DNA from: Octopus vulgaris
Lineage: Eukaryota
Assembly: GCA_951406725.2 (NCBI GenBank)
Contig: OX597817.1
Span: forward strand, 101,866,001 to 101,930,000
DNA length: 64,000 bases
Direction of reading: 5' to 3'
This document shows positions 3,125-64,000 of this stretch, piece after piece. Both the position numbers and the translations under genes were made by a program. Under the pieces are notes generated by a model that worked only from the letters and a program-made list of their open reading frames with translations, did not search any database and was not told the DNA's origin. Within the stretch, counting starts at the first letter, position 1. The number at the start of each line of letters is the position of its first letter.

Positions 3125-3668
3125 AAAATTTTTTTTCCCACAAGCGTTCTGGACCCCAGTTATGAACTCATTTGCATACAGCCAATCAGAGCTCAACTAT
3201 TAAACTAACTTATGAACGCATAACAAGTGATGGGCAATAAAATACGGTCATTTGGGTAAGGAATGACCATGCTTCTATTCTCTTTTGATAATGCTTGTGT
3301 TCTTGTTCTTGGTTCATCCATGGCTGTCTCTGCATAGTTATTTGTGTTGTTGTTTACTTTCTGAAACAGTAAGGGGAGAGGGTTGCTAGCACATCACCCT
3401 CCACCCACATTTTTCTCATCCATATCTTTACCATATGAGGCCCTAACAAAATCTGATAAAAGGTATAGATGCAAATCTATCTAATTACTTGTCTCTTTCT
3501 AAAATCAGGCATAACTTTGCGATCGATTGACTTACAACACTGTTCTTCACCTTGAGTTTACTTGGTAGAATGTGTTTGTTAACTTGACATGGTCAAGGTG
3601 AGCTCTGATTGGCTGTATGCAAATGGATTCATTACTGGGATCAGAAACTCTCATGGGAAAAATTTTCA
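3125..3668. repeat. ~70-bp inverted repeat pair (MITE-like) carrying octamer and CCAAT motifs
   Basis: CATTTGCATACAGCCAATCAGAGCTCA at 3169-3195 is the exact reverse complement of 3599-3625; the outer ~45 bp are also similar. Confidence 0.8.
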
Positions 3669-5917: not shown

Positions 5918-6641
5918 TGAAGTGCATTCCAGAAGTTTTCAGACTTTTTAAGAGTGACAGTTATAACTCTCCTAGATTAGAAGGAATATTGCTCTTGTGA
6001 ATTATGCAGTGCATTCCAGAAGTTTTCAGACTTCTTTAGGAGAGGAAGTTATAACTGGCCCAGATTATTGTAATATCATTAGTATACATCTAATAAGCTG
6101 ACCTGCCCACTTTTGTTAATCCATATTGAAATAGATGGCTGTAACAGCACTTTGAACACACATTGCTTGTCATAGCTGTCTAGGTTGCAGAATGCAGTCG
6201 GGACGTTTATTTTCTGGATGAAGATCATTGAGTGTCTACAAAGGCAATGAGTATACAGTTTGGAGTTGGTGTGACAACTATACATAGAATTATTCATGAA
6301 GATCTGAACATATGCCAAATTCCCAGGTAGCTCAGTAATGAACAATTGGACAGAGATAGAAATCAAAACTGCTCTTCACTCTCCCTACAGTCCAGGTCTT
6401 GCATCCTGTGACTTTTGGCTGTTCTCAATACTGAAGAAAAACCCCAGGGGCAGTTGTTTTGAAGATGAAGGATGCCGTGACAAGGATCCTGGGCAACTTC
6501 AGTTTGGAGGACTTCCATAGGACCTTCACGAAGTGGTTGTAGTGCTACAATAAGTGCATTGAAGGAGGTAAGGGTTTTATACTTCTTTGAAATTAATAAA
6601 TGTCTCCCTTGAAAAGTTTGAAAACTTCTGGAATGCACCTT
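5918..6641 (+). mobile_element. Internally deleted mariner derivative with duplicated left end
   Basis: TIR core GTGCATTCCAGAAGTTTTCAGAC in left-end copies starting at 5918 and 6005, and inverted at ~6612-6641. Transposase remnant HSPYSPGLASCDFWLFS in ORF 6338-6520. Confidence 0.85.
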
Positions 6642-17792: not shown

Positions 17793-19757
17793 GTAACTAT
17801 TTGCTACTGCTTCTTAAGAACATATAGTGTGCTTATGAAAATTAATTATTTCTTTCAAAAATTGAGAATAATAAAAATAAAATTTTGTGTGTTGGGGATA
17901 GGTTTACGTTTCTGTTATGAAATTTTGTCCATATAGGTGAATGAACTTGTTCATTTACTGTTACCTTCTTATTATGAATATGATCAGACATTTCTTAGAA
18001 TTTTTAATATTTTATAAAAGCTTGTATTTATTTCAGCTGTGAATTAATATTTGATATTTAGGTTCAGTTAATTTATTATCTACAAAAGAAGAGATAGATA
18101 AGTTATAGTAAATTTTGGGTATAAATTGTTTAAACCTTTAGCATTCAGATTAATCTGTCAAATGTAATGCTTATTTATTCACAATGTTTTGAATTAATCA
18201 TGCATTATCTTTAGCTTTGAGTTTTCAGTTAAGTAATTATATATTTTTAAATGACTTTGTAGGTTAGGTGGATATGGGTTAAAACATTTTTATTGGATGA
18301 AACTTAAGTTACTGATTCCTAAGAAAGAAGATTTTTCAATTACTGTAATCATTTGAATATTATGACTGCAGCTTAGGGTGCAATACTGTAGTTTTTCTGT
18401 GAATAAAAGTTGTCTAAAATGTAGGTTACATGAAGCATTTAAGGTATTAAGGGGACTAAAAGTAGAGCCAGGTGAAAAAAGTTTCATACTAAATGCTTAA
18501 GGAAGCTCTAGTATTTTTTCTCTTTTTTGACAATTTACTTTATAATATGTTAGAAATGAGCTGTAGAGAGTCGTTGAAATGAAGAACTGATCTTGAGTTA
18601 GATAATATAATAAATAAGGCAAGCAATGGAATTTTATAGATTAGCAGGAGTCAGCAGAATCATAAAATAATAGGAAAGCTGGCTTTTTTAGTTTGACACT
18701 AATGATTACAGAACAGATTGATTAAGCATCAAGTTCTCTCACCTACTAATTCAACCAACAGATATATCTAATGGTTTGTTGAAGGTAATTATTAAATTCT
18801 ATTTACTAGCTGATATCCTTCTGAGAGTGGAGTCAGCTTGCTTCACAGTGTAGGTAATTTATTGGTGTTGTGTTAGTATCGCCTGTTATAAAGTAGGGAG
18901 CCATGTTATTGATTAGCTTCATCAGCTCACTTTATCATATGGTATTTAGCTGCATAAGGTAAAGTATGATGTATCTAGTTTGTTGTCCATTCACTTTTGC
19001 ATGTCTGAATGTTTTAGTACTAACTATAGGCGTGATATGAATTGGACTTCCTTGATGTGGAATAGCTGCAATTACTTGATATTCATTTTAAAAAAGCCTT
19101 TGTCATTCTGATGTTCCAATTGGCTGGATGATATATTTTGAATGAAAAAGAGCTGGGCATTTATGAGAGAAATTATCCATAGAGGTAGCTGAAAGAAGAT
19201 TTTGTAAGTAGGGTTACTCTTACAAATATTAAGTACTACGGAAAAAATAATTCTGAATTGAGACATGGAAACATGCTGTCTTTGAAAAACAAATGATGAT
19301 ATATGAGTGGTTTGTTTTAGCTTATTTAGGCTGGTAGATTTAAAATGGTGTTGAGAAATGTGTTTGTCTAGAGCTATAAATAGCGACAATCACAATGAAA
19401 TGATCGTTAACATTGATTTAAATGGGTAGAAAAATCTACGAATTACATTGTTTATATTTTATTGTATTTTGTGATAGTGACAGGATTGGCATTGTTTACA
19501 AAGGAGCATAATTATTGATCAATTCTTTTATGTTGATTGAAGTTTCTGATCATTAATTATTTATTTTTCTTTCATGCATGTTAATCTTGAAAAATTAAAT
19601 TATTGCTTCAGATTTTATAAAATATAGTCACCAATGTTTAGGCGTTCTAAGCAATTGAGGAAATTGGTTTATCTTTACTTTGATAAAATTTGTCACAAAA
19701 ATCTGAAACTAATTTAAATGTTATTTTCTTTAAATTGAGTATCTTTCTTTGTTGCAG

Positions 19758-20168
19758 TCAACACCAAGCCCTGACCCTCCTGTAGCTGAGAACAATCACC
19801 CAGATCAAAATTATAAGCTTTGGCAGCAGCAACAATTCCATCATCTACCTCCACAAGTAGACTGTTTAAACAACACTCAATCAAAACTCTATTCAGAAGC
19901 CTCTGGATCCTCTGCTAATATGTCTGCAGCAATAGCCAACCACCCTCACCCTTATAACCCACAACAGCAAACTCCTAACTCCTTTTTGGACACAAGGCAT
20001 ACTGCTGATCATACAGTCATAAAAAAATATGAGCCTGAACTTGATGAATCATCTAATCCATTTTATTATCGTATAAATGAAGTTTTATTTAAGGCCCATG
20101 CTGCTCGAATTGGGCGCTTAACAAAAACATCACCTTCAGACAGTAGCCATTTTTCTTTTAGCAGATAA
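19758..20168 (+). CDS. FAM104/VCF-like protein, last coding exon
   Basis: ttgcAG acceptor; 136 codons then TAA. The C-terminal NPFYYRINEVLFKAHAARIGR resembles the FAM104 helix YFHINQTLREAHFHSLQHR. The spliced CDS is 579 nt (192 aa) with no internal stop. Confidence 0.85.
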   Translation, partial: STPSPDPPVAENNHPDQNYKLWQQQQFHHLPPQVDCLNNTQSKLYSEASGSSANMSAAIANHPHPYNPQQQTPNSFLDTRHTADHTVIKKYEPELDESSNPFYYRINEVLFKAHAARIGRLTKTSPSDSSHFSFSR

Positions 20169-34807: not shown

Positions 34808-35290
34808 CTGGAAATAAGGAAATTAAAAGAAAAAAAAAACCATTTTCAATGAATACTACATATGAAAGAAAACAAACTAACCATTTTTCCCATAAAAAAA
34901 AGTCCCATACATATGATACAACCTTTAGTTAAATTGCATATATCTGCCAAGTATGAATATTTCATGGAATTGCACTTATGTGCATGTGTTAAATGATAGG
35001 TGATATAAAAAAACTTAGTTCAATTAAAAAAAATATACTCTTCATTATCTACGCACCACTGCTACCTCCACCACCATCATCATCTCCCTCTCCCCCCTCT
35101 CTCTCAGCCTTTCTTTAACCTCACCATCAGAACATCACCCCTCTGCTAAAAATATTTCTAACTCTCTTTCTCTATATCACTACTTTCAACTAACTTTTTT
35201 AACTACATAATAAATATTATGCTCCCCCTACCACACATCATGTACTCTCTTTTTCTCTCTCCTTTTTCTTTCCCTTCAACTAATTACTTG

Positions 35291-36252
35291 AAAGCATTAC
35301 AATTACATTCCCTCTACCTCATGTCATTAAAGCTTCTCTCTTCCTCTTTTCTTTCTCCCACAAGAAAGCATGGCACCCTGTCAAAGCTGTCTCCAGAACA
35401 ACTTATACTAGCTAGACAAGTATGCTCTAAGCAAAAATCTTCTCTTGCAATTGTCTTACTATGAAGAGACCATCAATAGTACCCTAAGCTACATTTCATC
35501 TCAGTTGATTTTCTTCCTAATCAGTTGTACTAAAACTTTTCCCATTATCATCATAACTTGGTCTATCATTTTCATATCTTTGTAGTTGCTTCATTCTAAA
35601 GCAACTCATTTATGCTTGATGATAATACTGCTTTAATCGATATAGATGAAGATACTAATATGCCAGTCATTGGGATGCACAGAACTATTTTAAGCAATAT
35701 TCACATAACAGGTTACATGCTGCTATACTTCATATAGTAGACCCAGCATCCACTTTCTCAACAGCTTTTTACACCATGACAGCTCATTTTCACTTTAGTT
35801 ATTAGTAAGGTTAAACTGGGATCACATTTAAAACATGAGTTACTCCAGTTGTAAAACATCATAAACAAATAAATTCAAATTACAAATATGCTGAACCTCA
35901 CAAAGATGATTTAGGAATGCCACAAGTGGTGATATGTTGTGTTGTAGGGAATCTGTCCAATCCATACAGGTATGGAAAAATTGACATAAAAATGTTGATG
36001 ATAATGTAACCTAACTGCAGATAAAGGAAGACCTGTGAGAGATCAAGATATGTTATGCCAGGAATATTACTGTCAAGCAAACCTAGACTAAAGTCTTCAG
36101 TAATACAGCAATCTTATAATAATTCTGTTTGTCATTGTGTTACTTAGCCCGTCAGTAACACTTTCACGTGATTAAAAGAAAGAGGGAGAAAGAAAAGAGG
36201 AAGAGAGAAGCTTTAATGACATGAGGTAGAGGGAATGTAATTGTAATGCTTT
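35291..36252. repeat. Perfect 69-bp inverted repeat with an 824-bp spacer
   Basis: 35291-35359 is the exact reverse complement of 36184-36252. Confidence 0.95.
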
Positions 36253-36382
36253 ACAATAAATAATAGATATATTTACTTAATCATTTTTTATGTTTGTTTA
36301 TGTGTGTGTGATACATTTCTGTGAGTACGAGTAAGTCATATACAAAATATTCTAGATGTTATCAGGCTGGTTGAACAATGTT

Positions 36383-43246: not shown

Positions 43247-44831
43247 CACTGGCCAAAGTAAGTTTAAGACTGATGATGACAGTTCTATTCCTTCATTAAT
43301 ATATTTTTAACAAGACTGTATAAAATTATTTTACTTTTTATAGTTTATGTAGAATTTTTTTTCTTTTTCTACAGTTTGAATAATTTTAATGTGCAATTGA
43401 TTCAAATGATTAGAAATTATCGGCAAAATAAGTTTAAGACCATACCAAGATTATGCAAATTAATAAACTAAATGGGTGGTCATGTGGCTGGTCGTACTGC
43501 ACTGTTTTGTTTAATAATTGAGCATTGTTACACATTAATTTGCTGTGGGAAATAGAATGGCCCAGTTACTAGATCAGAGATCGTGTTGCTTCATCAGCAA
43601 AATGTGTCCTTCATGAACATTAGCAAGCAATTAGGATGCAGCAAAGTGGCTTGTTTTCAAGCGTGAAAACTTTAACAAGCCACTGACTAATACAAAGATC
43701 AACAAAGAATGGGTGCTCTGAGAAAAACAACAGTATGGATGGATCAGTGAATTCATAGGCTCTCTGGCGCTAACTGAATGCTAACAGTAGTGGACATTTG
43801 CAAGCAATTACATGATGAAACTGACATAAGCTTTACACCACAAACTTTCAGAAATCACCTAAAAGAATTTGGATTGTTTGGCCAGATTGCTCAAAAGAAA
43901 CCAATAATTTCTGAGATGAACCAGTGGAAGTGGATCAAGTTTACTAAAAAACATATAGAATGGACAGCTAAAGACTAGTCAAAAGTTCTTTGGAGCGATG
44001 AATCTCGCTTCTGCATCTTTGGATCAGATGGAAAGACTTATGTTAGATGCTGTCCAACTGAAGAATTCCATCCTAAGTGTGGTAAGAAAACAGCACAAGC
44101 AGGAGGTGTGGAGGTGTGTGTGAGGCGCAATGGTGTGGACCATGTTTAGCAGCTTAGGTGTTTGTCTAATTGTTAAGGTTGATGGCAGACTGAACAGTGT
44201 AGGCTATCTGCAATTAGTAAATGAAAATGTGTTGCCATATTTAAATAATCAGTTGTCACCAGGATCTATTTTCCAGTAGGACAATTTCTTCATTCATAAG
44301 GCTTGGAAAGTTTTGCAATATTCTGAGTGTAATAATAAATCTGCAGAGCCCAGATTTCAATATGATAGAAAATTTATGGAATTGTCTTTAAAAGAGTTCA
44401 TGCTAAAAAAACCAACAAATGTATCCCAATTATGTAATTTTATTGAAGAAATATAGCAGAACATTCCAAATGATTTTTGTGCTCATTTGTCCAACTCCAT
44501 GTCCCACCGTTGTAAGGCTATAATTGAAAATAATGGCTATGGAACTAGATACTAATAATAAATTTTTGTTCGTTGATCATTTGTACCATAAATTTTCAAT
44601 TGAAACAATAATGTTGGTAATGGTCTGAAACATATTCTGCCGATAGTTTCTAATCATTTGAATTAATTGTGTATTAAAATTATTCAAATTGTAGAAAGAT
44701 ATATAATGCCTATATCATTCGAAAGAGTAAAAAATTCTACATAAACTGTAAAAAGTAAAATAATCTTATAGTTTTGTTAAAAATAAATTAATGAAGGAAT
44801 AGAATGGTCGTCAAACATATTTTGGTCAGTG
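43247..44831 (+). mobile_element. Tc1 (DD34E) transposon with long IR/DR-type terminal repeats, decayed
   Basis: TA-CACTG...CAGTG-TA ends; ~195-bp inverted repeats (43247-43442 and ~44621-44831) with internal direct repeats. Motifs AQKKP, VLWSDESRF and SPDFNMIENLW. Confidence 0.93.
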
Positions 44832-52815: not shown

Positions 52816-52942
52816 GTTTAGGATGAATGTTGCTGTAATTTAGCCCCAGGAGACATTGTCTCCAGCTGGATATACAACACGATCCGTGTCTTTATATTTT
52901 CGAACAAGGGAATCCAGCACCCCTGCTCACCTCAAAACGATA

Positions 52943-52987
52943 TCTGTGTATCGCAATTTCCAGGTTATTTCCCTTCACCAGCGCAGA
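52943..52987 (-). ncRNA. Hammerhead copy with mutated core (CTGGTGA, A6G)
   Basis: tctgcg-CTGGTGA-agggaaataacctg-GAAA-ttgcga-T-A-cacaga on the minus strand. Confidence 0.65.
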
Positions 52988-53228
52988 ATAATTGTTCAGC
53001 TAGAGGTGGTGCAGCCAAATTTCCATTTGAAATATATAGTTTTCAAAGTGACAACTAGTCATTGATCTATAAATTAGAAAATTTATTCCAAAGTACTGTT
53101 GCTTAATATCTCTCGTGAGATTTACAAATAGTAATTTTCTAATTTATTGATCAATGACTAGTTGCCAATTTGAAAACTATATATTTCGAACAGGAATTTG
53201 GCAGCACCACCTCTAGCCGAACAATTAT

Positions 53229-53273
53229 TCTGTGCTGATGAAGGGAAATAACCTGGAAATTGCAATACATAGA
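53229..53273 (+). ncRNA. Type I minimal hammerhead ribozyme motif
   Basis: tctgtg-CTGATGA-agggaaataacctg-GAAA-ttgcaa-T-A-cataga; palindromic stem III; stem I pairs and extends via aacaat/attgtt. Confidence 0.8.
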
Positions 53274-53789
53274 TATTGTTTTGTGCTGAGTGGGGTGCTG
53301 GATTCCCTTGTTCGAAAATACAAGGATACAGATCGTGTTGCATAACCAGCTGGAGACGATGTCTCCTGGGGCTAAATTACAGCAACATTCGACCTAAACT
53401 AGGACTGCCAATAATCTTTACTCCAAAGTACTGTTGCTGAATATCTTGTAAGATTTACAAATAGTAATTTTCTAATGAATATATTAGTTGGAAATTATCA
53501 AAATATACTACAGTAACTTTAAGTAGTCTAATGAGATGGCTGGCAGTAATCTCATTAATTAATTACTAAATGGATTTGGATAACTTTTTTATATGTATAA
53601 ACCAATGTGTAAATTGACAAAATGGTCCCTCTAGTTATTTGAAATGATTGTAACCTTTAAAAAATTTATGTAACACCATCATCTTCTTTCATTTGTTTAC
53701 TATTATACTCAAATTGGTGAATTTGGGGGGGGGGGATTTACAATTTGTATTGGACTGTCCAGAAGATTAAGTGAATATGGATTCCAGTT

Positions 53790-57092: not shown

Positions 57093-59145
57093 AATTTTTC
57101 TCTATTCCATTACAAATGCTTTAAATCCTACACAATCTGATACATCTTCCACTTTCAGTTTTTCCTCATACTATGGACATTCCTATATCTTGAACTTTGC
57201 AACAGTTGTATAACCTCCCAAGACTTTTCACCAATGTTGTATTGTATGTACATGTATTGTTTCTAAGTTTCTTCTTGCACAGAACTTGTTTTTATATCAG
57301 CATTGTATTAATATCAATTTTTCTCCAATTTTTCAATTATTTTTTCCTCACTTCCCAACCAGAACTCACATTCCTTTCTTTTTCACTTTTTTTTTTGTTT
57401 TCTCCCATTTATGCACTTTATACTCACATGTGCAACTATTACACACCTCTCGCCCCTCCATGTGCTTCACTATTTTGTTTCTCTAAGAGAACAAAAACTA
57501 TTTTTGCACCAGTGTTGTATTGTAATAATTTCTTCAATGTTTCTCTAATTATTCTCTCACTGAACTCCCACCTTCTTCCTCACTTTCATTCCCTTGTCCA
57601 TGCTTTCCTTTCATACAACAGCATTTCACACCCATACCCTTGCATAGACTTCTATCACACCTTCCACACTCCTCTTGAATTCTTCTTTATCTCATACATG
57701 CATCTGCTTCCACCACTACACTTACATGCTTTCTTCTCTCTCTCTCTCTCTCACACACACACTCACTCCTACTAAACTATGACACTATACTTCTGAACTT
57801 ACACATATCTACATACACACCAAAGTAAAACTACACACACACACCACTCTTCTCCTTATGCCTATCTCAAAACACAGATACACTCATGTATGTGCACACA
57901 CATGCTACCCCCTATTCCCTTCTTAACCTCCTTAACCACCCCCATAGAACTGTATTCAAACCCAGTTCCTAACTCTTCACCCATTTTTTTTCTTTCTTTC
58001 TTTTCTTCTCAACTACTTTTCATCTTTCTTACTTCTATTCTCTTTTCTGATGAAGGTCTAACATCTGAAAAGTTAAAACTCTTTTCTTGTTCAACTAATA
58101 CAATATCTGTTAAAATTTATTTGTTGTCTTTTTTACTTTTTGTTTTTATTAATTAGTTTCTACACATGCGCGTGTGCACACACACACACAATTAAAAAGG
58201 CGCATATATTTTAGCATTTCATTTGTAAATTTATACAAAGATTACGTCAATATTTAAAACACTTTATAAACATGGAGTCATTGAAATGAAATTTGTAATT
58301 AACACATCTTTGTATTCATAGCATGTAAGCTGTGTGCACATGTACCTTTCATATCTTTCCACTTTATATTCATGTAGAACTTAGTGCATGTTTTTGGAAT
58401 GCTATAGATAGCTAAGTTGATAGACAAAGGGTTAATTATTTATTTTTATTTCAAATTACTGAACAGAAATTGGTAGCAGTTTCCAAAGACTTAATTGCAG
58501 TTCTGATAGATTTTCAGATACTTCATCAATGTTTATCTCATTTACTAATATATACTGATTTATATACTGTGTCGGTGTGTCTCTTTTAATCTTTTATCTC
58601 TTACCCCCATAAATCTTTAAAACTCTTATATCCATAAATCTATTACAGAAAATTAAACCTCCTCATACCTTCTTGTAACCTTCTACTTTTTATTCTATTT
58701 TATCTTGTTTTATTTTATCTCATTCTTCTTCTCTACCTTCCTAACCCCTCCCACTAATACCATTACCCTGTTATCTTACTAGAAATTTATATACATCGTC
58801 ATATATAACATCATCATCATTTTACATGGTGGTTTGGGTTGGACTAATCTCACATCATCTCCTAACTAACTGCCATAGCTTTTCACCACCTGGCATACAC
58901 AACAGAAAAACCAGCCAACTTTGTTGTGTGCATATTTATTTTGGCATGATTTCCATGGCTGGATGCATTTTATTATGCCACCAACACAGGAGAGGTTCTC
59001 CTTAACAGGGCTACAGTGTGCCCTGCACTCAATGCTAACTCTGTTCATCTGTTCCTTTATATAATATAGTTTTTATAGCTGTTTGCTCTTCCTCAGACAA
59101 ACCACTTTACACCCATATTCTGCATACTTAAATTACTACCGCTTG

Positions 59146-59626
59146 ACTCCAAGGACACAGATATTGTGTCTAAAGCCAGCTAGAGACGAAGATCTCTTGG
59201 GGCTATAAAGCTACAGTAACACCCCCTCCCCAATGTCGTTAGCCATGATAAGATGGCTTCTATACTTTACATTATCAAGCGATTACTGTTTCAATCTCAT
59301 TCTGAGATTTAATTATGCTTACTGTTCGTTTTTCGACATCAGTGGCAGACGCCATTAGAAAAACTTATATCTATTTGCAAAGGAGCCTTCTCTTTCATTG
59401 CTACCTGGTGGTTACCGCCCGTTGACGAGGGACAACAATCCCGAAACTAGTTCGAGTGTATCACTCAGGCTTGCGAGGAAGGGATGGCCTCCCTTTGCAA
59501 ATACTCCAAGGACACAGATATTGTGTCTAAAGCCAGCTAGAGACGAAGATCTCTTGGGGCTATAAAGCTACAGTAACACCTCCTCCCCAATGTGGTTAGC
59601 CATGATAAGATGGCTTCTATACTTTA
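59146..59626 (+). mobile_element. Candidate retrozyme 3: 124-bp direct repeats (period 357 nt) flanking a hammerhead ribozyme
   Basis: 59146-59269 and 59503-59626 differ at 2 positions; shares downstream hairpins with 52816-53476. Confidence 0.85.
59416..59458 (+). ncRNA. Type I minimal hammerhead ribozyme motif (U3 variant)
   Basis: cgcccg-TTGACGA-ggga caacaa tccc-GAAA-ctag-T-T-cgagtg; 4-bp stem II and palindromic ACTAGT stem III. Confidence 0.8.
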
Positions 59627-60158
59627 AATTAAATTATTCTTTTCTGAATATTTAACAGCTTAAATGGGTCACTACCAATGAGAAAGTAGACTCCTTCACA
59701 ATCAAGTATTTCTTGTCATAGAGATTAATTGCTATGAGCATTGTAATAGGGGCAAGTGGATCAACCAAATAATTCCCATGAGCATAGATTTAATTCATAA
59801 ACTTCATACAGAGTTACATTTTCAGTTGGTTGTGCTGGTATGAAAATGGGCTTCAAAGAAATAAAAAAATTGTGGGCAAAAAATGAAATGTGTTAACAGT
59901 GAAAAGTGCAAGTGGGAAACAGACAAGTGAAGTCAGTGGAAGAAATAGAGAAGTGAAACCTCACAATATTAGGATGAAATGATTAGAGGCTGAAACAAAT
60001 AGCAACAGGACACACTGCATATCTGTCCAATTGAAGCCAGCATAGAAAAAGAGAAGTTAATACACTGATAAGGATCATCATGATCATTTTCATGATATTA
60101 GGATGAAAAGAAAGCAGTGTCTTTTAAAAGAAGATAAAGAATATGTAAAGTTACTTAC

Positions 60159-61174: not shown

Positions 61175-64000
61175 TAGAGGGGAGGGAAAGATGGCTGCTT
61201 ATAAATGCCAAAACCTTCCCAGGCGAAGAATGTACCCCACAACATAGACTGGTAGTTAGTGACTTCAGGATCAGGACTAAGAGGACCAACATGGAGAAGA
61301 AGGGTCTGGAAGCTTAAAGACCCTGCAAATGGACAGAGATTTAGAGACATGTTACTTGAAGCCTTCGACGAAATAGGAGGGGGTATAGCTACACATGGGG
61401 TAGAAGATAACTGGACACTTCTAAGGGACAACCTGCTGAAAGCCACTGACCAGATCTGTGGCTGGTGCAAAGTCCCCTCAAGACATAAAATAACGTGGTG
61501 GTGGAACAATATTGTTGACAGGGCTATTAGACAAAAGAAACAGGCTTGGAAGGACTGGAAGAATGGTGGTAGCAGGGAATTGTATCAGACTGCCAGAAGG
61601 GAAGCTAGGAGATAGGTGTATTTAGCCAGAGGGGAAGCAGATAAGAAAAAATTTGCCAATGTTCTGCGCCGTGAGGATGAAAGACTTGAGGTATTTCGTG
61701 TTGCGAGACAGTGTGTGAGAGAGAATCGTGATGTGGTAGGAGAGAAATGTGTTCGCAAGGATGACGGCTCACTTGCACTAAATGAGGATGCAAAGAGAGA
61801 GGTTTGGAGACGCCACTATGAAAGGTTGCTGAATGAGGAAAATGTATGGGATAAAGAGAGTCTGCCGAATGTCGACCCAACAGAGGGACCAGCAATCCGA
61901 GTTGATAGTTCCTTAGTAGTTAAGGCAATTACAAGCATGAAAACAGGGAAAGCCCCTGGCCCATCAGGAATTACTGCAGAGATGCTCAAAATATCTGGTA
62001 GTGTTGGCTATAGCCTAGTCTCCCATATAGTTAACCAGGTGATACACGAAGGAGTAGTATGGTGTAGCAGCATAATAGTCAACTGCTACAAAGGTAAAGG
62101 TGACACTCTAGATACAAATAACTATAGGGGTATCAAGCTGCTGGATCAGGTAATGAAGGTCACGGAGAGGGTTATAGCCCAACTAATTAGAGAGAGAGTG
62201 AGCTTAAATGAGATGCAGTTTGGGTTCGTGCCAGGGAAAAGTACTACTGATGCTATATTCCTGGTAAGACAGCTGCAGGAGAAATACCTAGCCAAAGATA
62301 AGCCCCTGTACCTGGCTTTTGTTGATATGGAGAAAGCCTTCGACAGGGTTCCCCGATCGCTTATCTGGTGGTCAATGAGGAAACTAGGGATAGATGAATG
62401 GTTAGTGAGAGCTGTGCGAGCCATGTACAGAGATGCTGCTAGTAAGGTGAGGGTTGGCAACGAGTACAGTGAAGAATTCCGGGTAGAGGTTGGGGTCCAC
62501 CAAGGTTCAGTCTTCAGTCCCCTCCTATTTATCATAGTCCTCCAGGCAATAATGGAGGAATTCAAGACAGGATGCCCCTGGGAGCTCCTCTATGCTGATG
62601 ACCTTGCTCTAATTGCTGAGTCTCTATCAGAACTGGAGGAGAAGTTTCAGGTGTGGAAGCAAGGTTTAGAATCGAAGGGCCTTAGAATCAACCTAACCAA
62701 AACCAAAGTCCTAATAAGTAGGAAGGTAGACCAATCACAAACGCCTTCAGGTAGATGGCCCTGCTCGATCTGTAAAAAAGGCGTAGGTAGAAACTCTATA
62801 AGGTGCACCAAGTGTAAGCTATGGACACATAAGAGGTGTAGCAATGTCAAAGGAAGACTAACTAGGAAAATAGTTTTTATCTGTGGCAGATGCTCAGGAG
62901 TAATAAACTCTGAAAATATGCAGAGACCAACTTCTACCATGTTCCAGGGAGAAAAACTAGAAGTAGTTGATAGCTTCCGCTACCTAGGTGACCAAGTCAG
63001 TAGTGGGGGTGGGTGTGCTGAAAGTGTAACTGCTAGAGTAAGAATAGCCTGGGCAAAGTTTAGAGAGCTCTTACCCCTGCTGGTGACAAAAGGCCTCTCG
63101 CTCAGAGTAAAAGGCAGACTGTATGATGCATGTGTACGTACAGCCATGCTATATGGTAGTGAAACATGGGCTGTGACTGCTGAGGATATGCGTAAGCTCG
63201 CAAGAAATGAAGCCAGTATGCTCCAATGGATGTGTAATGTCAGTGTTCATAATCGACAGAGTGTAAGTACCTTGAGAGAAAAGTTGGACCTAAGAAGCAT
63301 CAGTTGTGGCGTGCAAGAGAAGAACCATCAGTTGTGGTGTGCAAGAGAAGATAGTTGTGTGCGAAAGTGCCACACCCTAGCAGTTGAGGGAACCTGTGGA
63401 AGAGGGAGACCCAGGAAAACCTGGGACGAGGTGGTGAAGCACGACCTTCGAACTTTAGGTCTCACCAAGGAAATGACTAGAGACCGAGACCTATGGAAGT
63501 ATGCTGTGCATGAGAAGACCCGGCAAGACCAGTGAAAACATAACCTGTGGCCTACATACCTTTCCTTCTTGGGAAGCACGACCTTCGAACTTTAGGTCTC
63601 ACCAAGGAAATGACTAATGACCGAGACCTATGGAAGTATGCTTTGCGTGAGAAGACCCGGCAAGACTAGTGAGAACATAACCTGTGGCCTACATACCTTT
63701 CCTTCTTGGGACACAAAACTCCACTTGTGAAGACCCGTTGAGACAAGTGAAAATCAAAATCAAAATCAAACCAAATCAAATCAGATATCAGAAAGCAGAA
63801 CCAAAATCGAAGTCGATCAACATCAATGGAAATAGCAGCTGTGGTTAAGCGAACCATCCGATCGTGGACGTTGCCAGCGCCGCCCCGACTGGCCTCCGTG
63901 CCGGTGGCATGTAAAAGCACCATCCGTTCGTGTCCGTTGCCAGCCTCACCTGGCCCCCGTGCCGGTGGCACGTAGCACCATCCGTTCGTGGCCGTTGCCA
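61175..64000 (+). mobile_element. Young 5'-truncated RTE-clade LINE (RT, PHD-like finger, repeat-rich 3'UTR running off the window)
   Basis: Abuts a truncated SINE at ~61172; long RT reading frame; 3'UTR has tandem gccggtggca.gt...gcaccatccg units. Confidence 0.95.
61259..63535 (+). pseudogene. RTE reverse transcriptase ORF with one in-frame stop (61613-61615) and no endonuclease domain
   Basis: Motifs GKAPGPSG, NYRGIKLL, QFGF.PG.ST.DAIF, AFVDMEKAFDRV, GVHQGS..SPLLF, LLYADD, FRYLG and YGSETW. Confidence 0.93.

Follow-up and report, generated by a model that had tools for sequence, protein, structure and literature searches.

A dispersed hammerhead retrozyme family in Octopus vulgaris whose insertion ends carry the signature of Penelope-like elements (PLEs)

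The window analysed here, i.e. the whole stretch of 64,000 nucleotides to which all positions refer unless otherwise stated, was taken from the Octopus vulgaris assembly GCA_951406725.2 (contig OX597817.1, positions 101,866,001 to 101,930,000, forward strand). Near its end lies a copy of a 357-nt repeat with a hammerhead, the parts of which are collected in the table below. The direct repeat announced in a preliminary description, which was made from the letters alone, was recovered as 124 bp (59146-59269 and 59503-59626) at a period of 357, with its two mismatches at 59224/59581 and 59237/59594. As also described there, CpGs are retained (observed/expected 0.57 in the element and 0.28 in the window), TG...CA ends are absent (the element begins with ACTCCA and ends with ACTTTA) and there is no ORF. 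The longest stop-free frame in the region of the unit, which is 357 bp long with 43.7% GC, has 68 codons, an ORF with RT and GIY-YIG is absent, and a rolling-circle ORF was ruled out by stops in all six frames of the unit. What had been missed is that the same octamer, TTAAATTA, stands on both flanks, with 10 filler bases (59136-59145) between its left copy and the element. The stretch 59146-59628 is a 1.35-unit, 5'-truncated retrozyme copy between an 8-bp target duplication. The folded monomer was more stable than its shuffles both as linear RNA (z -3.6) and as circular RNA (59146-59502, z -3.9 over 60 shuffles, 59% paired); the circular RNA proposed earlier is plausible. The 68-nt hammerhead by itself folded no better than shuffles (z -0.88).

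The remainder of the window holds a number of other features. A stop-free frame at 19734-20168 (plus strand) looks like a terminal host exon, for which FAM104 is a weak lead (27% of cluster members at an atlas score of 0.84) and Pfam gave no match. On the same strand, the frame at 61616-63535 encodes 639 aa of a non-LTR element, namely a reverse transcriptase that includes a PHD-like finger, and is followed by a 137-bp tandem, while a broken DDE transposase (Transposase_1) lies on the minus strand at 291-1237. Pairs of inverted repeats of 47-87 nt were seen at 3132-3662, 5922-6638, 35276-36267 and 43274-44813, and may represent other back-to-back insertions or DNA transposons. ARAGORN reported zero tRNA in the whole window, and a tRNA-derived SINE was rejected on this empty scan.

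Table. Parts of the retrozyme copy and an older relative in the window.
Feature	Position	Strand	Basis or remark
Target-site duplication, left copy TTAAATTA	59128..59135	.	same 8-mer on both flanks
Filler, 10 bases, from left duplication to element	59136..59145	.	without match to the unit upstream of position 1
First 357-nt unit	59146..59502	+	5' end = truncation point; 5' ends of other copies scattered
Tail segment between family 3' ends A and B, internal in this copy	59275..59321	+	3'-end histogram, 101 insertions; A ~unit 130, B ~unit 174-176
Long hairpin around hammerhead	59372..59503	+	12-bp closing stem 59372-59383 / 59492-59503; folding
Type I hammerhead with closing helices	59404..59469	+	Rfam HH9 alignment; alignment, pair counts
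Loop 1, UUAC	59412-59415	+	HH9 alignment
Stem I, one C.A mismatch	59416-59421 / 59453-59458	+	HH9 alignment, pair counts
Core UUGACGA (U3.G8)	59422-59428	+	HH9 alignment
Stem II, 4 bp	59429-59432 / 59439-59442	+	HH9 alignment, pair counts
GAAA, then ACUAGU and U17	GAAA at 59443-59446	+	HH9 alignment
Helix III region AACUAGUU, self-complementary, with the GUU behind which (59452) the cut is predicted	59445..59452	+	folding
Partial second unit, stopping at short 3' end site A (unit ~126-130)	59503..59628	+	matches unit 1 to 59626
Target-site duplication, right copy TTAAATTA	59629..59636	.	same 8-mer on both flanks
Old back-to-back copy of ~352-nt family	52816-53450		arms 89-92% complementary; canonical core CUGAUGA (53236), helix III a palindrome, triplet AUA

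The hammerhead was matched by the Rfam model Hammerhead_HH9 over 59404-59474 with 29.3 bits (E 7.2e-05 in a 1.6-kb search), the gathering score being 52; throughout the window nothing attained a gathering score, and a whole-window scan at E<=1 did not include this hammerhead. The nested helices and the 12-bp outer stem of the preliminary description were present in the fold in addition to the HH9 match, and the predicted cleavage site after 59452 was supported. In the monomer, helix III consists of 2 bp round a 2-nt loop with a pair probability of 0.0, compared with 8 bp between two copies (self-duplex -8.0 kcal/mol). Judging from this folding, the palindromic helix III would need a dimer, a mechanism reported for animal type I hammerheads (PMC4209133).

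The U at core position 3 turned out to be the state of the family and not decay. When the consensus core of Perreault et al. (2011) was used for comparison, the allele counts (78 at either position) gave U3 76 times and G8 73 times, i.e. a wobble in place of the consensus C3-G8 or the compensated U3-A8, and among the first 100 listed of 136 core-motif matches 99 had U and none had C at position 3. The informative comparison is therefore U3.G8 against U3-A8. Across the family the core is otherwise nearly invariant; in stem I, the copy at 59146 has T at 59457 (G-U), where 79 of 84 allele counts have C (G-C). U3-A8 occurs together with GUC in a sister lineage of about 84% identity, whose stem II carries A-U in place of G-C and whose palindrome reads ACCGGU or ACCGCGGU; its loci were chosen by a motif that fixes GUC and what comes after. 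Counting all relatives, four helix III palindromes were seen (ACUAGU, ACCGGU, ACCGCGGU and AUCGCGAU), the sequence varying and the palindrome being kept. In an alignment of 48 rows, 95.4% of the cells pair and two-sided changes occur in 27 cells, against 8.7 in shuffles; stem II G-C is replaced by A-U in 14 rows, and the palindrome centre UA by CG in 12. This covariation is mostly one change between two lineages, with few independent events, and the compensatory changes suggest that the hammerhead has been under selection.

In a tree of 35 copies, from which the three core columns were left out, as were two loci with short cover, and which was rooted on one old copy, the GUU copies formed one clade (support 98) nested among the U3-A8/GUC copies. 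G8 was present in all members of the GUU clade but one, U3.G8 with GUU being derived from U3-A8 with GUC. Both U3.G8 and GUU would be expected to slow hammerhead cleavage. U3-A8 is reported as a natural covariation (PMC3088659; PMC4209133). A saltern U3...G8 variant with a two-base insertion is also cited in the literature, giving the wobble a precedent, while a literature search for a U3-G8 pair or the combination of C3U and G8A returned no paper. At position 59452, the GUC variant made up 19% and 16% of the summed contig depth in runs X16 and X17 and 0.3% in X15; amplification of subfamilies may differ between organisms, contig depth being a poor measure of it.

The 357-nt hammerhead repeat is a dispersed family of hundreds of copies. 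In the genome (2.8 Gb, 227 contigs), the unit gave 1826 first-look candidates, and all 40 of these that were scored, one of them being the copy at 59146, matched most or all of the unit at 94-100%. Exact searches returned 712 matches to a 27-nt 3' motif and 136 to a 33-nt core motif, with none for the reversed controls; the locus is thus not the isolated one that the preliminary description had named as the case against itself. Its view of a fairly recent insertion is supported by a difference from the family majority at only 5 of 448 sites. "Youngest", on the other hand, holds within the window, in relation to the old relative at 52816-53450, but not within the family, where the copy ranks 15th of 82 by divergence and, among 28 other within-insertion pairs compared over positions 1-120, 8 have fewer mismatches and 9 are tied with it. 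Given this rank and the minority T in stem I, neither is it the best template for reconstructing the RNA. Tandem copies with two hammerheads do occur, e.g. one of 2.5 units (L002) and core matches 357-358 bp apart on contigs C3, C7 and C15. Natural loci with two hammerheads include G000:C3:91376625-91377520, and the sister lineage also has a dimer, on C1 (L062). The two complete hammerheads by which Li et al. recognise an active locus are accordingly found in the family, whereas the copy at 59146 has one.

No empty site was seen in any of the three runs examined (organism codes A, C and D, one run possibly being the assembly's own source), where a presence/absence polymorphism had been suggested as a check. 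In all three runs, single-copy contigs leave the unique flank at either junction and continue for 21-30 bases of element sequence, which is below our 31-base bridging rule, and none joins flank to flank past the element; they fit a shared insertion and do not prove its fixation. In one run, taken as RNA by guess, contigs covered the element while its unique flanks were sparsely covered, a signal that is not locus-specific. The copy is young and probably shared between organisms. A third family of ~352 nt, with C3-G8 and the palindrome AUCGCGAU, occurs as dimers and trimers elsewhere in the genome. Older relatives of 65-72% identity, with the same tail end and a longer helix III, were noted at L133:131-465, L183:4580-4818, L205:7-756 and L120:2013-2174, which points to several waves of the retrozyme lineage.

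Insertion ends were analyzed in 101 distinct insertions of at least 88% identity, after duplicates and two sister-lineage loci had been dropped. Their 3' ends lie at either of two sites about 45 nt apart, site A (unit ~126-133) or site B (168-181), while the 5' ends are scattered; an apparent excess of 5' ends at unit position 1 was rejected as an artefact of the query start. Since 3' ends are fixed and 5' ends are not, the 124 bp taken in the preliminary description as a terminal repeat of the element is simply the excess of this copy over one unit, its 5' end being a random truncation. Of the single-armed insertions, 37 end at A, 17 at B and 2 elsewhere. Two-armed, i.e. back-to-back, insertions (45 in number) combine A with B in 35 cases and never A with A or B with B, the other 10 having an end elsewhere; such pairing in all 35 scorable cases has P ~2e-13 under independent arms. 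In one of them (L081, G000:C1:5255367-5255630) a short end is again combined with a tailed one, yet the alleles at four of four diagnostic sites assign the two arms to different subfamilies, which suggests two RNA templates in one event. Duplications of at least 7 bases (7-14) flank 22 of 57 non-microsatellite insertions, compared with 6% of mismatched flank pairs, and, as a raw count, (TA)4+ adjoins 44 of the 101 insertions.

The hallmarks described for PLE insertions are partial tandems, a 5' copy in inverted orientation and a tail that is confined to one of the ends (PMC8557442; PMC3846280). In vitro, a PLE tail is reported to correspond to the segment that separates two internal starts of reverse transcription, and the PLE enzyme, a predicted dimer, to cut both strands of AT-rich DNA (PMC11167929). 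The insertion ends are a PLE signature, and the retrozyme has very probably been moved by PLE machinery, the 3' end at site A being, as we infer, a start of reverse transcription.

As for the template, a cleaved linear monomer gives at most 180 or 225 nt from these sites and longer arms exist, so that the RNA copied was either a circle or an uncleaved multimer. Arms cross the cleavage site in 31 of 68 cases of the 3'-selected set; among all 133 arms, 12 cross two such sites. Stops at the cleavage site (8/35) are in no excess over those on the flanking sides (11/46 and 6/27), and 5' ends are not piled up there (2 of 24 within 305-310, p 0.44); the DNA thereby gives no sign that cleavage happens, and the lack of extra stops fits uncleaved RNA equally well. 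The same element and PLE machinery might accordingly have used an uncleaved linear multi-unit transcript, with the U3.G8/GUU hammerhead weak or idle and circles minor. This we regard as possible but doubtful, even though the youngest clade has left both the Watson-Crick 3-8 pair and GUC, the ribozyme is reported as dispensable for insertion by the anole PLE in vitro, where unprocessed RNA was the main template (PMC11167929), and 8 of 9 Xenopus retrozyme dimers are stated not to have cleaved (Li et al. preprint). Linear masters that are copied from a fixed 3' start and truncated at the 5' end could only become shorter; as related families nevertheless keep units of 350-358 nt, we infer that unit length is regenerated. 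Neither does a linear template sit well with the longest arm of 896 nt (~2.5 units) and the lack of long arrays among the 101 insertions, with the private variant common to all three units of L002, or with a core that is otherwise so constant. More generally, variants restricted to a single insertion are in 4 cases common to its tandem units (71 unshared) and in 5 to its inverted arms (64 unshared), a sharing that gene conversion could also produce, and the arms of an insertion have the same diagnostic allele in 57 of 73 comparisons, against 12% between insertions. L081, with its arms of two subfamilies, counts against a circle. A circular template is reasonably likely to have been the main route.

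Long intact frames are present in at least two PLE families of the genome, both of them young and both with short and tailed ends. One (L177-L182, e.g. G000:C17:42762600-42767600) has RT and GIY-YIG frames of 781 aa that lie 0.3-1.4% apart in five copies, a pLTR with a minimal U3-A8 hammerhead and an ACAUGU palindrome, and a tail of ~38 nt; in one member (L178) a long open stretch was observed upstream of the 781-aa frame. In the other (L189-L218), which is very young, all 150 scored matches have 99-100% protein identity, with many 775-aa frames and a tail of ~30 nt, and its back-to-back pairs combine A with B in 4 of 4. The survey scored 300 of thousands of PLE candidates and compared 72 loci. 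No match of the 357-nt unit to the pLTRs of these 72 loci was found, all hits falling on older retrozyme copies in their flanks, and no partner PLE emerged by sequence. Alignments of the retrozyme 3' end to four PLE ends were at chance level (p 0.14-0.89), and a 9-mer, CTTCTATAC, common to the retrozyme and one PLE tail was dismissed as chance, its placement relative to the ends being different.

With a survey of that size, the copies might instead be cut-down pLTR ends of an autonomous PLE outside the sample rather than a separate non-autonomous element, all the more so as their end structure is identical to that of PLE debris and 24 of 57 Xenopus retrozyme families are reported to match known elements, nearly all of them PLE termini (Li et al. 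preprint). We consider this improbable: upstream of the 3' ends the sequence re-enters itself with a period of 357, to 2.5 units at most and with no ORF, and the hammerhead is canonical with a loop 1, as against the minimal hammerheads of the pLTRs sampled. Its two near-identical direct repeats, the 68-nt motif folding no better than shuffles and the score below the Rfam gathering threshold might suggest that the copy is a solo LTR, a TRIM or a tandem duplication of local origin (satellite seed) in which a hammerhead arose by chance. This is of negligible probability and refuted, for the first two in agreement with the preliminary description, by a family whose dispersed copies are fixed at one end and variable at the other, by inverted arms and duplications of 7-14 bp, and by the absence of TG...CA and the compensatory changes in the hammerhead.

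Returning to the retrozyme as an element of its own, the copy at 59146 is probably a non-LTR retrozyme for whose insertion a PLE supplied both reverse transcriptase and endonuclease, likely with the predicted circular RNA as template. In such a scheme, rare copies with two tandem hammerheads would be transcribed, the palindromic helix III would pair between the two hammerheads and release a monomer (unit 308 round to 307), and a host ligase would close this into a circle. A PLE protein would then nick AT-rich DNA, start reverse transcription internally, from either site A or site B, and travel round the circle until it dropped off, leaving the 124-bp redundancy. The copy at 59146, with its one hammerhead, is likely a dead end. 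Tentatively, a dimeric PLE enzyme could prime at two fixed sites of the same circle, one per DNA strand, giving one short and one tailed end, and the last-amplified lineage could have weakened its ribozyme (GUC to GUU and U3-A8 to U3.G8) so that circles persist for copying.

The value of these data lies in the family-level evidence for PLEs and in the derived wobble core, the copy at 59146 itself being ordinary. A link of PLEs to retrozymes was proposed in PMC7229834 and is given homology support in a 2026 preprint (see below), while a 2020 review described animal retrozyme repeats as without a motif pointing to a partner retroelement (PMC7761336); the octopus family gives independent evidence, from insertion ends, on which retroelement mobilises them. 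Furthermore, the predicted RT start sites are exact enough for the existing in vitro PLE assay, with circular against linear RNA, and the natural series of cores (C3-G8, U3-A8 and U3.G8) with its changing palindromes provides a test of whether a weaker ribozyme favours spread. Our literature search found no such family for octopus or cephalopods, although the supplements of PMC7229834, the Li et al. preprint or PMC5785218 may list the family or its core.

Among known systems, every testable feature of animal non-LTR retrozymes was found here. Those described by Cervera and de la Pena (2020, PMC7229834), e.g. of 350-390 bp in mussel and 330/350 bp in axolotl, likewise have a non-coding unit of 150-450 bp with GC below 50% and no LTR, each unit bearing a single type I hammerhead whose palindromic helix III is weak, long target duplications (>4 bp; 8 bp here) and a self-paired fold, and PLEs are present in their genomes too. 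Unlike them, as far as they are described there, the octopus copies are dispersed, of at most ~2.5 units, often back-to-back and provided with PLE tails, and their core has U3.G8 with GUU; moreover, circles and cleavage are demonstrated for those retrozymes, whereas for the octopus family both are predicted. The HH9 hammerhead (RF02275) shares the type I layout, the GUUAC / GUA internal loop of stem I and the CAA loop 2, and differs in that our match scores below gathering, has a short palindromic helix III and belongs to a repeat that is mobile, HH9 being a single motif in an intron. Plant LTR retrozymes, TRIMs and solo LTRs are set apart by type III hammerheads in LTRs, TG...CA ends and 4-5-bp duplications, none of which is seen here.

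With the endonuclease-bearing PLEs, as presented by Arkhipova et al. (2013, PMC3846280), Craig et al. (2021, PMC8557442) and Frangieh et al. (2024, PMC11167929), the family shares several traits: copies are truncated at the 5' end, may be partially tandem or carry the 5' copy inverted, and have a tail at one end only; there are two internal 3' ends, targets are AT-rich or microsatellites, and duplications measure 8-10 bp. It differs from them in having no ORF, a tail of ~45 nt rather than 30-40 and a canonical instead of a minimal hammerhead, and from PLE derivatives in showing no sequence match to the pLTRs sampled. The same conclusion is drawn in the preprint of Li, Clavereau and Pollet (2026, 10.64898/2026.07.22.740005), in which retrozymes are regarded as non-autonomous PLE sequences and dispersed monomers are also reported. 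Its evidence, as set out there, consists of co-occurrence and pLTR homology in vertebrates, whereas ours consists, with no pLTR homology, of insertion-end structure in an invertebrate.
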